Shown here one piece after another: positions 51,179-56,223 of a stretch of 64,000 bases of DNA. How positions within the stretch are numbered: position 1 is the first letter of the stretch; the number at the start of each line of letters is the position of its first letter. The stretch lies in the sequence record AP025967.1; one strand, given 5' to 3'. The notes below the pieces were generated by a model. That model was given only the letters and a program-made list of their open reading frames with translations, was not told the DNA's origin and did not search any database. Source of the stretch: a plasmid. The position numbers and the translations under genes were made by a program.

Positions 51179-52566
51179 TGTCGCGTAGTATAAGAATATT
51201 TGATGATGAAATAATTGCTAAAAAAGTTTTTACTAAAATAGAAAATGCTTCAAAGCTACCACTAAATTACATCAATAAAAATAGAGATAAATACGCCAAA
51301 GATATAAAAACAGGTAAGCTTGTTAGTAAAAATATGTTTAGAAAAAATACAGAAGTCGTTGTAAAAATTACTTCAGGTTCTAAAAATTCTCAAGCACTTT
51401 CAAAACATCTTGATTATATTTCTCGTGATGGAAATGTAGAATTAATTACAAACGATTTTGATAGATATGCTGGAGAAGATGAGATTTTAGAAGTTAAAAG
51501 AATTTTCAAAAATGAAGGATCTCCTATTCCATTATATAAGGAAGGTGCTAAAGAAAAAAGACATACTATTAATATGGTTTTTTCTATGAAAGAACATTCT
51601 ACAACACCAAAAGAAAAATTACAACAAGCTGTAATTACTACTTTAAAAAGAATGTATCCAAATAATTTTTTTGTAGTTGCTTTTCATAATGATACTGATA
51701 ATCCGCATTGCCATGTTTGCTTGAAAGTTGCGGATAAAAATGGTAAAAGAATTAATCCAAAAAAAGCAGATTTAGCAAATTTAAGAGCAGAATTTGCAAA
51801 AGCATTAAATGAGTTAGGAGTTGAAGCAAAGGCTACAAATAAAAAGCAAAGAGAAGTAGAAATAAATCAAGAAATTTCAGTTAAATTAAATACAAATAAT
51901 GAGATTAATCAAGCACCAAAAATAAAAATGCATTATTATCAAGTTATGGATTTCGGAGAAGCAAACTATCAATTTAGCACAGATAAAAATGCCAAAAAAA
52001 GTTATTATGTGAGTTATAAAACCAAAAAAGGAATAACTACAATTTGGGGACAAGATTTAGAAAGGGTTGTAAGAGAAAATAAAGTTTTAAGGGGTGAATA
52101 TGCAAGATTTAAAATAGTAGGGCAAGAAAAATATGAGATAAAAAGAAAGGCAAAAATTAATAACAAGTGGCAAGAAGTTGTTAAAACACTTAAAAAACCT
52201 ATTTGGGAAGTATCAGTAATAGGTAGAGAGAAAGATTTAAAACAGATCAACAAAGCCAAAACAACAAAAAAATATAAAATTATACAAGATAAAGGAGTGA
52301 ATAATGAGAGAGATTATACAAAACAATATAGACAGAGAGTCTTACAAGAGCTCGGTAATAAATCAACTATCCGAAGAGAAACTGCCCAAGAAAGAAACTC
52401 TATGCGAATATTGTCCAAACAGCCTATGGTTCATAACACAAAACGAACTCAAATGCTTTTGCACATCAATGCACTCAATCAGTTACAGCAAGGAGAGCGA
52501 GGACGATCCGATAATATCTTGCGATGGACAAGTGCTAGGAATAATGAGATTGAAAGAGATGGATAA
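51178..52566 (+). CDS. MOBP-family relaxase (TraI/VirD2-like)
   Basis: Motif III HNDTDNPHCHVCL matches HxDTDNxHxH. An N-terminal Tyr/Ser region is present. Confidence 0.75.
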   Translation: MSRSIRIFDDEIIAKKVFTKIENASKLPLNYINKNRDKYAKDIKTGKLVSKNMFRKNTEVVVKITSGSKNSQALSKHLDYISRDGNVELITNDFDRYAGEDEILEVKRIFKNEGSPIPLYKEGAKEKRHTINMVFSMKEHSTTPKEKLQQAVITTLKRMYPNNFFVVAFHNDTDNPHCHVCLKVADKNGKRINPKKADLANLRAEFAKALNELGVEAKATNKKQREVEINQEISVKLNTNNEINQAPKIKMHYYQVMDFGEANYQFSTDKNAKKSYYVSYKTKKGITTIWGQDLERVVRENKVLRGEYARFKIVGQEKYEIKRKAKINNKWQEVVKTLKKPIWEVSVIGREKDLKQINKAKTTKKYKIIQDKGVNNERDYTKQYRQRVLQELGNKSTIRRETAQERNSMRILSKQPMVHNTKRTQMLLHINALNQLQQGERGRSDNILRWTSARNNEIERDG

Positions 52567-52587
52567 TTTATAAAAGAAAGGAATAAA
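52516..52587. repeat. 72-bp direct repeat, copy 1 (partner 56152-56223)
   Basis: 71/72 bp identical. Overlaps the relaxase 3' end. Confidence 0.85.
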
Positions 52588-52661
52588 ATATAAAGAATAT
52601 ACTAAAAATTTGGAACGCTCCTTGCTTAATTTTTCAAAGCAATATTTTAAAAGGTAATAAA

Positions 52662-53516
52662 ATGAAAAAAATTATTCTTATTTTGGCAGTTTTAAGTGGT
52701 TGTCTTTTTGCTAGCGATGAGCTAAATATCGATAGCTTGTTTAAAAAGCAAATAGGCTTAAGAAGCATTACAAGTTTATCCTTGCTTAGCACAGGAAATC
52801 CTCACTCTTATTACATTTATCCAAATATTGGAGTAAATGGAGATTTAAATGTTTGGAATGATACAAAGCAACTTTATTTGAATCAAACTTTTATTTATAC
52901 GCTTACACCTAATTTCGATTTACTTATTTCAGGCGGTGGAAATTATGCAAGACAAGAGTATAACAATATTATTTCAGGTGCTTTTACAAGCAAAAATACT
53001 TTAAATTTTGATTCTTTATGGATAGGCTTTATTTATACAGGAGAAAGCATTGCTAACTTTGTTCCGCAGATTAAATTTCAAACAGCGATCATTCAAAGAG
53101 AAAAAACAGTTTTGCAAACTAAAAACTTTTATTTTCAATCCCAAAACCTAGAAGCAAATTTAAGAGGATATAGCGACCCTGTGGTATATAGTATTTATAC
53201 AGGATTTGGTTATAACGCCCAAAGAAAATTTAAAATTGCTAAAATAGAATATGGGAATAGCATTTATTTTGGTGGAAATTTATCTATAATTTTAAGCCCT
53301 AAAATTACTTTGGATTTAGGAGCAGAACAAAGATTTCAAACCGAACAAAAAATCAATGGTGTAAAAAATTCAGAAATCAGATCAATTCCTACAATTAGTG
53401 GCGGTTCTACTTATAGCATAAATCAAGATACTGCTGTTTCAGTCAGTGCAAGTCTAGGTGGAAGCTCTGCTGCTCCTGATGCAATTTTTGGTATCAATCT
53501 ATGGAAAAAATTCTAA
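52662..53516 (+). CDS. outer-membrane beta-barrel-like protein
   Basis: Signal peptide, alternating amphipathic strands, C-terminal ...LWKKF. Confidence 0.45.
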   Translation: MKKIILILAVLSGCLFASDELNIDSLFKKQIGLRSITSLSLLSTGNPHSYYIYPNIGVNGDLNVWNDTKQLYLNQTFIYTLTPNFDLLISGGGNYARQEYNNIISGAFTSKNTLNFDSLWIGFIYTGESIANFVPQIKFQTAIIQREKTVLQTKNFYFQSQNLEANLRGYSDPVVYSIYTGFGYNAQRKFKIAKIEYGNSIYFGGNLSIILSPKITLDLGAEQRFQTEQKINGVKNSEIRSIPTISGGSTYSINQDTAVSVSASLGGSSAAPDAIFGINLWKKF

Positions 53517-54094
53517 AAATAGCATTAATGGTTGCTCTTTTGCCTTTGTTTTTAAAGGCAGAATTTGTAGTTAAGTCTTACCAAGAAATCAAAAATGAAA
53601 AAGTTGTAAGGCAAAATTATGAAGAATCTTGTGGTGCTGCTTCTTTGGCTACGCTTATTAATACACTTGATGATAATAATTTAACAGAATTAGATTTATT
53701 AAAAACCATGAGTGGACAAAAACTTTATACAGATATGGTAAGCTTTGCAGATTTAAATGATGCAGTAAAAAAGCTTGGCTATGAAAGCAAGTCTTATAAA
53801 GTCGATAGAAAGATTTTAGAGAATATTATATCTGTTCCTATTTTAGTTAAAATTGAAGATGATCCACGCTTTCCACATTTTGTGGTGATTATAAATCATA
53901 AAGGTAATTATTTACAAATACTTGATCCAAGTTATGGAGAATATATCAGTTCTAAAAGAGAATTTTATAGTGTTTGGGATAGATACAATAAAGGTGGATT
54001 TGCTTTAGTTGTTAATCCTAAAAAACAACTCAAAGATTACAAACTCAATTTACCCAAATCTTTAAATTTTGAAATTGAACCTTTTGGATTTTAA
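53501..54094 (+). CDS. periplasmic C39-family peptidase-like domain protein
   Basis: Signal peptide. Q..ESCGAASLA carries the catalytic Cys in a C39-like context. His is available in PRFPHFVVI. Confidence 0.5.
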   Translation: MEKILKIALMVALLPLFLKAEFVVKSYQEIKNEKVVRQNYEESCGAASLATLINTLDDNNLTELDLLKTMSGQKLYTDMVSFADLNDAVKKLGYESKSYKVDRKILENIISVPILVKIEDDPRFPHFVVIINHKGNYLQILDPSYGEYISSKREFYSVWDRYNKGGFALVVNPKKQLKDYKLNLPKSLNFEIEPFGF

Positions 54095-55373: not shown

Positions 55374-55479
55374 ATTAATTCCTTAATTTAGATTTTTCTG
55401 CCTTCAACCTAAATATATTAAAATAATATAAGCAAGATCTGTTCCACTTTGGAATAAAATGGAACAGGGAGAGTGAGAA

Positions 55480-55923
55480 TTAATATTTACTTCTGAATTC
55501 GTTTAGAATTTTATAAGCAGGACTTCCTGCATAAGCCCAAATATTTGTGCCCGAACCGTATTTGCTTGAAAAATATTGCAAATAGTAATCTTTTTGGTTA
55601 TTTACATAGCGGTATTTGGCTACGATATATCCACTACTTGAATAACCAAGTTGTTTGCTTACTTCTCTATGATCATTACTGTTATCATTCAAAACAACAT
55701 ATCCATAAGAAGTTAGAGAACCTGCATAATAATCAAAAGCACTATCTCTTTGAAACCGATACCCACCCTTAACCTCTTTCATCTCATCAAGGCTAAGAAC
55801 TTTAACACCTGCACTATTATCACTAATTGCTCCATTACTGACTTTAGCAAGAATATCTTCTGCAAAAGCAGAACTTGACAATAAAGCACCTAAAGCTACA
55901 ACACTCAATAGTTTTTTAAACAT
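55480..55923 (-). CDS. exported Tyr/Gly/Ser-rich protein with double-glycine leader-like motif
   Basis: Signal peptide MFKKLLSVVALGALLSSSAFA is followed by VKVLSLDEMKEVKGG. Hydrophobic residues sit at -4, -7, -12 and -15, Glu at -8 and Ser at -11 relative to GG. Confidence 0.5.
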   Translation of the reverse strand: MFKKLLSVVALGALLSSSAFAEDILAKVSNGAISDNSAGVKVLSLDEMKEVKGGYRFQRDSAFDYYAGSLTSYGYVVLNDNSNDHREVSKQLGYSSSGYIVAKYRYVNNQKDYYLQYFSSKYGSGTNIWAYAGSPAYKILNEFRSKY

Positions 55924-56151
55924 TTTAGCTCCTTGTTTTAAAATGTAATATAATTCATTTTATCATAATAAATGCTCTAAATCAAATTTAATCAAAGTAT
56001 TATGTTATAGATATTTAAAAAATATATATAATGATTTTATGGTATTTGTGAAAGTTTTTTATTTTTTAAAAAAATGTATAAAATTGTAATAAAGCTAATC
56101 TAAAATATAAACAAATAATTTTTTATATTGTATTACAATTTAACTCAATTA

Positions 56152-56223
56152 ATCTTGCGATGGACAAGTGCTAGGAATAATGAGATTAAAAGAGATGGAT
56201 AATTTATAAAAGAAAGGAATAAA
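56152..56223. repeat. 72-bp direct repeat, copy 2
   Basis: See 52516-52587. Confidence 0.85.

Follow-up and report, generated by a model that had tools for sequence, protein, structure and literature searches.

A stretch of 64,000 nucleotides from a plasmid (sequence record AP025967.1; hereafter the window) resembles the pTet-type conjugative plasmids of Campylobacter jejuni and Campylobacter coli (MOBP relaxase, MPF_T), and the junction between its relaxase and GNAT genes holds a 3,636-bp cassette of four genes, all four of whose open reading frames (ORFs) are intact. The cassette encodes an exported, standalone cysteine peptidase of the C39 family, an outer-membrane (OM) beta-barrel that resembles FapF, a 147-aa precursor in which a Sec-type signal is followed by a double-glycine (GG) leader, and a 415-aa protein of the Cj0814 family. 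We consider it reasonably probable that the cassette is a mobile copy of a FapD/FapF-like two-step secretion system with a new type of cargo: the precursor would cross the inner membrane by Sec, and its GG leader would then address it to the peptidase and the barrel.

Relatives of the four proteins were drawn from a survey of 77 loci, in a collection with one genome per species; stop-to-stop ORFs were called in all loci, and hidden Markov models were made for the four families. In this survey the barrel family is limited to Campylobacter, enterohepatic Helicobacter and one Wolinella. The module is common in C. coli, C. jejuni, Campylobacter upsaliensis and enterohepatic Helicobacter, some sequence clusters holding hundreds to more than 1000 members. 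The literature searched, which misses most subscription journals, mentions the module in neither chromosomal nor plasmid-borne form; no paper in it links Campylobacter or Helicobacter with such a system or ties the Cj0814 family to a GG-leader protein, a periplasmic C39 peptidase or a FapF-like barrel, and no functional discussion of Cj0814 was found there.

The four genes are closely associated. Among the 45 barrel genes flanked on each side by 5 kb or more of sequence, 44 have a C39 gene within 8 kb, which is adjacent in 27 cases; a GG-family gene lies within 8 kb of 38 of them, and a Cj0814-family gene within the same distance of 32.

A C39 peptidase and a plugged outer-membrane barrel

The peptidase (197 aa; 53501-54094, plus strand) matches the Pfam family Peptidase_C39 (PF03412) over residues 33-162, with 64.5 bits against a cutoff of 22 (E = 1.2e-17). 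Its Gln38, Cys44, His126 and Asp142 align with the catalytic set of ComA and PCAT1 (Gln38 corresponding to the oxyanion Gln), and these four residues are invariant in 69 of 69 full-length relatives. Judged by profile score and catalytic residues, the protein is a true C39 peptidase. By a hydropathy measure, all 69 relatives also have a hydrophobic N-terminus (median 10-residue hydropathy 2.8) ahead of a conserved A-(E/D)F junction, an export signal that would place the catalytic domain in the periplasm, in the same class as FapD. Neither the peptidase nor its relatives contain an ATP-binding cassette (ABC) domain, and no ABC gene lies within the cassette; models of peptidase-containing ABC transporters (PCATs) match the protein only over their N-terminal 120-135 or so positions, which sets it outside that group. 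A preliminary description of the window, made without database searches, had proposed a standalone, exported, C39-like peptidase lacking an ABC domain, and had named the lack of C39 catalytic Cys/His geometry as the finding that would speak against it. The proposal is borne out by the Pfam score, by the presence of the full catalytic set, and by the export signals in 69 of 69 relatives.

FapD and FilB, the two periplasmic C39 enzymes that have been described as standalone, are the top NCBIfam models for the peptidase. The score for the FapD equivalog (NF058616) is 53.9 bits against a cutoff of 330, and the match to the FilB model (E = 7.7e-14) is likewise well below that model's cutoff; on these scores the peptidase is an enzyme related to FapD and not its ortholog.

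The start of the peptidase gene overlaps by 16 nt the end of the gene for a 284-aa OM protein (52662-53516, plus strand), which by structural match and family profile consists of a signal peptide and a FapF-like 12-strand beta-barrel. The AlphaFold prediction, for which 68 relatives were used (pLDDT 82), shows a beta-barrel with a short N-terminal helix, and its top structural match is FapF. In the model the fold is of the FapF type, that is, a 12-strand barrel with an N-terminal plug segment, and the N-terminal segment of the protein is conserved (S18, D19...R34, S35). The periplasmic coiled-coil trimerisation domain of FapF is absent, about 15 residues lying between the signal peptide and the first strand. 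The barrel has no match in Pfam and none in NCBIfam even at E = 10, the FapF model NF058560 included. Against 1.84 billion representative proteins, the profile of the barrel family finds only about 25 close representatives, and it reaches FapF/FilC-like proteins (as NCBIfam scores them) at E values of 1e-8 to 1e-5; the names of the remote relatives are uninformative, all being 'hypothetical' or missing. The neighbour of the peptidase had earlier been taken for an OM beta-barrel that could be an exit route, and the top structural match to FapF agrees with a barrel of protein-exporting type.

The signal peptide of the barrel (window 52662-52720) contains a lipobox-like LSGC whose Cys is absent in homologs. 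A lipoprotein reading was therefore rejected, and cleavage by signal peptidase I before the invariant Ser18-Asp19 is more likely. Some barrel-family records in NCBI, UniRef and JGI (positions 4163-5017 of locus L003; records P0159, P0199, P0205, P0208 and P0225) bear the label 'HmcD domain'; no model in Pfam or NCBIfam and nothing relevant in the literature searched explains it, a suspected link to the Haemophilus haemocin (hmc) locus found no support there, and the label was not used.

A double-glycine leader behind a Sec signal

The candidate cargo of this machinery is the 147-aa precursor (55480-55923, minus strand), which is identified from its sequence, the leader logo and an AlphaFold2 (AF2) model, and which is laid out as MFKKLLSVVALGALLSSSAFA, then EDILAKVSNGAISDNSAGVKVLSLDEMKEVKGG, then a part beginning with Tyr. 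Three segments can be distinguished on the minus strand, with predicted cleavage sites: the Sec signal (aa 1-21, nt 55923-55861), which would be cut between AFA and ED; a GG propeptide of 33 residues ending ...GVKVLSLDEMKEVKGG (aa 22-54, nt 55860-55762), which would be cut after Gly54; and a putative mature domain of 93 aa (aa 55-147, nt 55761-55483; 10.9 kDa, pI 9.2). The leader residues in the window are V(-4), M(-7), E(-8), L(-12) and V(-15), and the 93-aa tail contains 16 Tyr, 13 Ser and 7 Gly (17% Tyr and 14% Ser), so that residues and counts agree with what the preliminary description had reported of a Sec signal, a GG-leader consensus and a Tyr/Gly/Ser-rich tail.

Conservation falls off just after the Gly pair. 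In the logo of 104 intact relatives the conserved positions are G-16, V-15, L-12, S/N-11, E-8, M-7, V/I-4, G-2 and G-1; position +1 is Tyr in 62%, and the information content is below 1 bit after +1. Both the logo and the window protein fit the double-glycine consensus L(-12) S(-11) E(-8) L/M(-7) V/I(-4) G(-2) G(-1). The motif L-x3-[ED]-x3-[VIL]-x-GG is found in 113 of 145 GG-family ORFs and in only 3 of the 7585 remaining ORFs of these loci, and its presence in the GG family is therefore not due to chance; the shorter [VIL]-x-GG occurs in 122 of the 145, the remainder being pseudogene fragments or FGG, MGG and AG variants. The leader is kept in Campylobacter and Helicobacter relatives and the sequence after the GG varies freely, the reverse of the loss of conservation in homologs that had been named as evidence against a GG leader. 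Paralogs from the same locus share 54% identity in the leader and 26% in the mature part. In Campylobacter sp. 19-13652, two paralogs have an identical signal and propeptide (...GAISDNSFGIKKLNNSQMSDVKGG followed by Y) and diverge beyond it; each is followed by a Cj0814-like gene, and the barrel and peptidase genes are next to them.

In the window protein and its relatives alike, a Sec-type signal of 21 residues stands before the leader, which is thus not at the extreme N-terminus. UniRef names some homologs 'Bacteriocin-type signal sequence'; an NCBIfam scan of the cargo for a double-glycine leader gave no match. Two side observations concern GG motifs in other loci. In Helicobacter apodemus (CP021886; locus L006, 5318-5868) a frameshift splits a GG-family gene exactly at the GG site (...KQVKGD), which makes it either a pseudogene or a sequencing error, and in locus L069 an ORF of about 400 aa (5690-6895) just upstream of a C39 gene has a GG-leader-like motif (LDLEELRFLAGG); it lies outside the 147-aa family and may represent a different cargo class.

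Is the GG motif the target of the peptidase? The peptidase might instead process the barrel or another envelope protein, the 147-aa protein staying in the periplasm or being cut by another enzyme. Such a view can appeal to the Fap system, in which the substrate of FapD is not settled and the channel is a candidate (PMC5557850), to the invariant Gly266-Gly267 of the barrel, and to the seven of 45 barrel loci that have no GG-family gene within 8 kb. We nevertheless hold it to be very improbable: at all of its key positions the leader agrees with the consensus that C39 enzymes recognise, and no other part of the cargo is conserved as well; the motif is all but absent from ORFs outside the GG family in these loci; leader identity tracks the machinery (see below); and cargo and peptidase are predicted to be sent to the same compartment.

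In the AF2 model the leader is disordered, apart from a short helix over its E-M-K segment, and the mature domain is a compact alpha/beta fold with two helices (pLDDT 80-91). The mature domain has no relative in the Protein Data Bank (PDB), Pfam or NCBIfam; Ntox22 is the only toxin-like Pfam trace (E = 0.088, below cutoff), and neither imperfect repeats nor N/Q-rich amyloid motifs are present. These features bear on a further proposal, which like the bacteriocin and colonisation proposals discussed below concerns the role of the products within the same pathway, namely that the cargo, rich in Tyr, Ser, Gly and Asn, is the building block of a Fap/Fil-type fibre or pilus or of an amyloid-like polymer on the cell surface, exported unfolded, with the peptidase acting on a priming subunit or on the channel. 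The machinery does have its nearest parallels in the functional amyloid pair FapD/FapF and the putative pilus pair FilB/FilC, barrels of the FapF type export unfolded fibre subunits (PMC5557850), and the Tyr and Ser contents of the mature domain would suit a fibre. A compact fold that is neither a repeat nor a beta-solenoid, the missing repeats and amyloid motifs, the absence from the cassette of matches to FapA/B/C/E or to other Fil components, and a paralog divergence extreme for a polymerising subunit all argue to the contrary, and we regard a fibre as quite improbable.

The Cj0814-family partner

The fourth gene (54126-55373, minus strand) encodes a 415-aa protein of the Cj0814 family which, on the evidence of NCBIfam NF046095, gene pairing and co-variation, is a candidate cognate partner of the GG cargo. 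The match to NF046095/PF28266 covers residues 109-331 with 231.1 bits against a cutoff of 80, and the label of the model is 'Cj0814 family flagellar-dependent secreted protein'. A signal peptide is found in none of 102 partner relatives, and the N-terminus is rich in Ser, Asn and Thr. A search of the PDB with the partner profile returned only apolipoprotein (E of about 0.9), and a Pfam scan of 44 family members gave scattered single matches only. Between the convergent stop codons of the cassette lies an AT-rich inverted repeat (54086-54113, no strand), read from the sequence as a candidate bidirectional terminator.

Cargo and partner genes tend to occur in pairs, often in several copies per locus: a Cj0814-like gene comes directly after 69 of 127 GG genes, typically on the same strand, and 68 of 93 Cj0814-like genes sit directly downstream of a GG gene. 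Among 51 cargo-partner pairs, Spearman correlations (descriptive values only, the sequence pairs being non-independent) link the identity of the mature domain with that of the partner (rho 0.44 overall, 0.58 among same-locus paralogs) and only weakly with that of the barrel (rho 0.15); the leader correlates with the barrel at rho 0.32 and with the mature domain at rho 0.07. Locus L012 provides an example, its barrel and peptidase being 98% and 97% identical to those of the window, but its cargo and partner only 65% and 66%. This pattern fits a modular precursor whose leader would belong to the machinery and whose payload would belong to its partner.

The same pattern is known from toxin-immunity pairs, and it has to be asked whether the mature cargo is an antibacterial bacteriocin or toxin released by the barrel, with the Cj0814-like protein as a cytoplasmic immunity protein and the plasmid copy as a competitive edge. 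The leader is of the type of class II bacteriocins and microcins (compare the UniRef name of some homologs), several diversified cargo paralogs with a conserved leader occur per locus, the cargo is tightly linked to a co-varying downstream gene, cargo and partner are exchanged between loci with near-identical machinery (as in L012), and the cassette is on a conjugative plasmid. However, the partner is unlike known immunity proteins: it is 250-500 aa long, its N-terminus is an extended S/N/T-rich stretch, and signals for membrane insertion or export are absent. NCBIfam, moreover, labels its family as secreted. The mature domain belongs to no toxin family of Pfam or NCBIfam and has no PDB match, the sigma-54 control suggested below is more typical of colonisation factors co-expressed with flagella, and the C. 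coli chromosomal locus described below has a single cargo gene and four partner genes. A bacteriocin role is thus, in our judgement, rather unlikely. Of the earlier proposal of an unconventional bacteriocin or toxin secretion module, the secretion and processing part stands and the bacteriocin or toxin part is unproven, as the mature fold is without known relative and gives no indication of a killing or immunity function.

Sigma-54 motifs

Two promoter-like motifs in the cassette suggest how its genes may be controlled. The sequence TGGAAC-N5-TTGC, characteristic of sigma-54 (RpoN) promoters, has exactly three matches in the 64-kb window, and two of these lie in the cassette in the correct orientation: TGGAACGCTCCTTGC (52611-52625, plus strand) is 37 nt upstream of the barrel ATG, and TGGAACAGATCTTGC (55432-55446, minus strand) is 59 nt upstream of the partner ATG, between it and the cargo stop codon. 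The -24 element of the second lies inside the 3' arm of a 12-pair hairpin (55467-55439). The third exact match (8111-8125, minus strand) is inside a 446-aa ORF (7084-8424, minus strand) and was set aside as probably due to chance.

A relaxed form of the motif was counted up to 160 nt upstream of ORFs in the other loci, where 1.7% of background windows contain it. It precedes 23 of 108 barrel ORFs, 33 of 106 partner ORFs, 10 of 136 cargo ORFs and none of 79 peptidase ORFs, and its spacing to the ATG is tight at about 50 nt (47-57 nt for the barrel genes). The flagellar rod and hook genes of Campylobacter are transcribed under sigma-54, which fits the 'flagellar-dependent secreted' label of the partner. 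These observations suggest that the barrel and Cj0814-like genes may belong to the flagellar RpoN regulon.

Within such a regulon, a possible role is colonisation or host interaction. The cargo would leave by way of Sec, the C39 peptidase and the barrel, the partner would leave by the flagellar apparatus, and once released they would work jointly, their target being the host or the surface of the cell or flagellum, not competing bacteria. Besides the family label and the sigma-54 motifs before the barrel and partner genes, several points are consistent with this role: the signal-less, S/N/T-rich N-terminus of the partner is like those of flagellar type III substrates, the module occurs only in host-associated Campylobacter, in enterohepatic Helicobacter and in a single Wolinella, and its chromosomal locus lies a few genes from fliP. 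Set against these, secretion is predicted, not observed, for both cargo and partner, no paper in the literature searched describes either protein, and the strong diversification of the paralogs is more easily explained by inter-bacterial conflict, host immune pressure being a possible cause as well. We take this role seriously while placing it somewhat short of an even chance.

Chromosomal origin and insertion into the plasmid

The module is also present on a chromosome labelled C. coli, between homologs of kdsB and glnH, in the interval that in C. jejuni NCTC 11168 contains Cj0814. The C. coli locus begins with a Cj0814-like gene, followed by the peptidase and barrel genes on the other strand, the 147-aa gene, and three more Cj0814-like genes. 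Protein identity to the window is 99% for the barrel, 98% for the peptidase, 94% for the cargo and 93% for the partner, and the plasmid cassette is therefore a trimmed and rearranged copy of such a module. Judged by these sequence comparisons, the module is chromosomal in origin, at the Cj0814 locus. Other pTet variants hold two partners or two cargo-partner pairs. In many further loci the barrel, peptidase or cargo genes are fragmented, and the module therefore decays often. A contig labelled 'uncultured Bacilli bacterium' (CANQXM010000013, locus L015) contains two complete module copies with 80% identity to the window and is probably a mis-binned Campylobacter contig.

The cassette is bounded by two direct repeats without strand, delimited by repeat finding, BLAST and empty-site alignment. 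The left one (52516-52597) comprises the final 51 nt of the MobP1 relaxase gene, with its stop codon at 52566, and 31 nt of intergenic sequence; the right one (56152-56233) overlaps at its end the GNAT start codon (56229). The copies are 82 nt long and 95% identical (98.6% in the first 72 nt), and their starts are 3636 nt apart, in agreement with the preliminary description, which had placed a cassette of about 3.6 kb between 72-bp direct repeats at the relaxase-GNAT junction, the upstream copy overlapping the relaxase 3' end and the downstream copy abutting the GNAT start. The pTet plasmid of C. jejuni 81-176 (NC_006135) has the empty site, in which the relaxase is followed directly by GNAT with one repeat copy, and it matches the query over 2864 nt, which is 6501 minus 3636 within one base. 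It follows that the cassette was inserted, and that about 80 bp of the junction was duplicated in the process. The plasmid NZ_CP148171 is 99.9% identical to window 51000-57500. In two further loci (L089 and L090) the right-hand repeat copy accompanies the cassette though the downstream gene is an HTH regulator.

No recombinase (transposase or integrase) was detected among the four cassette genes in Pfam and NCBIfam scans, and the repeats of 72-82 bp, which are the duplicated plasmid junction and not transposon ends, are too long for the target duplications of transposons; insertion by a transposon or insertion sequence was therefore rejected. Homologous recombination of the Campbell type would be the simplest origin.

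Several features of the surrounding plasmid may be added. Across pTet plasmids the interval from the relaxase to a large SNF2 helicase/methylase gene (window 52566-56955) is a hot spot for cargo genes: GNAT, NYN-domain, HTH-regulator or DUF3800 genes occur there in different plasmids, whether or not the cassette is present. Two backbone segments are present twice in the window, one of 2.3 kb (9202-11536 and 47281-49614, 99.3% identity) and one of 0.9 kb (12468-13411 and 62768-63712, 96%), and the source is therefore larger than a single pTet plasmid of about 50 kb, or partly duplicated or cointegrated; the relaxase junction is present only once. There is also a tandem duplication of about 170 nt (44684-44854 and 44829-44998, 98.8% match; span 44684-44998).

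Proposed pathway

We hypothesize that the secretion system operates as follows. The 147-aa precursor would pass through the inner membrane via Sec and lose its signal peptide at the AFA-ED junction, leaving a periplasmic pro-protein with a 33-residue propeptide that ends in the canonical double-glycine leader. The exported C39 peptidase would bind the leader and cut after Gly54, and the cut would be coupled to the passage of the still-unfolded 93-residue mature protein via the FapF-like 12-strand barrel, whose gene may be translationally coupled to that of the peptidase. The leader would direct the precursor to the machinery, with the mature domain as a payload that can vary. The 415-aa partner, which has no Sec signal, would be made from its own sigma-54 promoter and, in line with the label of its family, would probably use the flagellar export apparatus to leave the cell; the sigma-54 promoters of the barrel-peptidase operon and of the partner gene would join the system to the flagellar regulon. 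Recombination at the relaxase/GNAT junction would have brought the cassette into the plasmid, with duplication of about 80 bp.

Several points weigh against this pathway. The cut at this leader is deduced from the leader consensus and gene linkage, and in Fap the substrate of the peptidase is unknown and perhaps the channel itself (PMC5557850). The mature domain is predicted by AF2 as a folded globular protein; a plugged 12-strand barrel passes only unfolded chains, and such a cargo must therefore stay unfolded until it is translocated, with no evident energy source for export. In addition, for seven of the 45 barrel loci no GG gene lies closer than 8 kb, and about 45% of GG genes lack an adjoining Cj0814-like gene. 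The correlations between cargo, partner and machinery rest on non-independent sequence pairs and are descriptive, and sigma-54 motifs precede only a fifth to a third of barrel and partner ORFs, in counts whose denominators include pseudogene fragments. The flagellar export of the partner, though probable, is read solely from the family label and the N-terminal composition.

A more far-reaching view, which is possible but in our estimate doubtful, is that Campylobacter and Helicobacter have a previously unrecognised secretion system wired to the flagellar regulon. Polymorphic effectors would carry a tandem Sec and GG address, of which the C39 peptidase would read the second part, and a minimal FapF-like barrel would export them; the partners would leave by the flagellar apparatus, the two halves would meet only outside the cell, and cargo-partner pairs would be swapped between strains and spread by conjugative plasmids.

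The two-step system of the FapD/FapF kind has consequences of its own. For the FapD-type class of C39 peptidases, whose substrate and site of cleavage are unknown in Pseudomonas (PMC5557850), a candidate substrate and site (between the GG pair and Y55) can be read from the sequence, and an open question on pairs of C39 peptidases and FapF-type barrels therefore becomes testable. If the pathway is correct, a double-glycine leader can serve as a second-stage address after Sec, for crossing of the OM without an ABC transporter. An uncharacterised 'flagellar-dependent secreted' family is now linked to a defined machinery, and the presence of the module on resistance plasmids of the pTet type means that it is spread by conjugation.

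Comparison with known systems

The closest parallel is the functional amyloid system Fap of Pseudomonas, in which FapD is an experimentally shown periplasmic C39 peptidase required for secretion via FapF (PMC5557850). The core of Fap, like that of the cassette, is a Sec-exported, standalone and catalytically active C39 peptidase encoded beside a 12-strand OM barrel with an N-terminal plug, and in both cases the substrates would enter the periplasm by Sec. The differences are nevertheless considerable. The cassette barrel has no coiled coil and is 284 aa long, as against the 420 positions of the FapF model; the cassette proteins score far below the FapD and FapF equivalog cutoffs; and none of them matches the FapA, FapB, FapC or FapE models of NCBIfam, so that the module is not a Fap amyloid system. 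The predicted cargo is a small globular domain and not an amyloid repeat protein, and it carries a canonical GG leader, whereas the Fap proteins are without canonical C39 sites (PMC5557850). The cassette moreover adds a Cj0814-like partner and sigma-54 motifs.

The putative Fil pilus of Acinetobacter (the C39 protein FilB and the barrel FilC; NF050078/NF050079) has the same two-gene core, and distant relatives of the cassette barrel match FilC as well as FapF; the cassette proteins score well below the cutoffs of the Fil models, and no other Fil components are present. The 415-aa protein is a member of its family, Cj0814 (NF046095/PF28266).

With the PCATs and their GG substrates (ComA/ComC, PCAT1/CtA and CvaB/colicin V), the cassette shares the C39 family with the same catalytic residues, the leader consensus L-S-x-x-E-L/M-x-x-V/I-x-G-G with its short helix at the E-M-K segment, and a cleavage that is presumably coupled to export. 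In PCATs a cytoplasmic peptidase forms one protein with the ABC exporter, and the substrate begins with its leader; in the cassette the peptidase is free and predicted to be periplasmic, and the leader comes after a Sec signal and has an extra conserved N-terminal part, D-F/L-L-A-K-V-S/T-N-G-A-L-S-D-N-S. The membrane to be crossed would be the outer one, and no ATPase would take part. The module thus parallels FapD/FapF and FilB/FilC and borrows the GG-leader logic of the ABC-type bacteriocin exporters, and it is a member of none of these systems.

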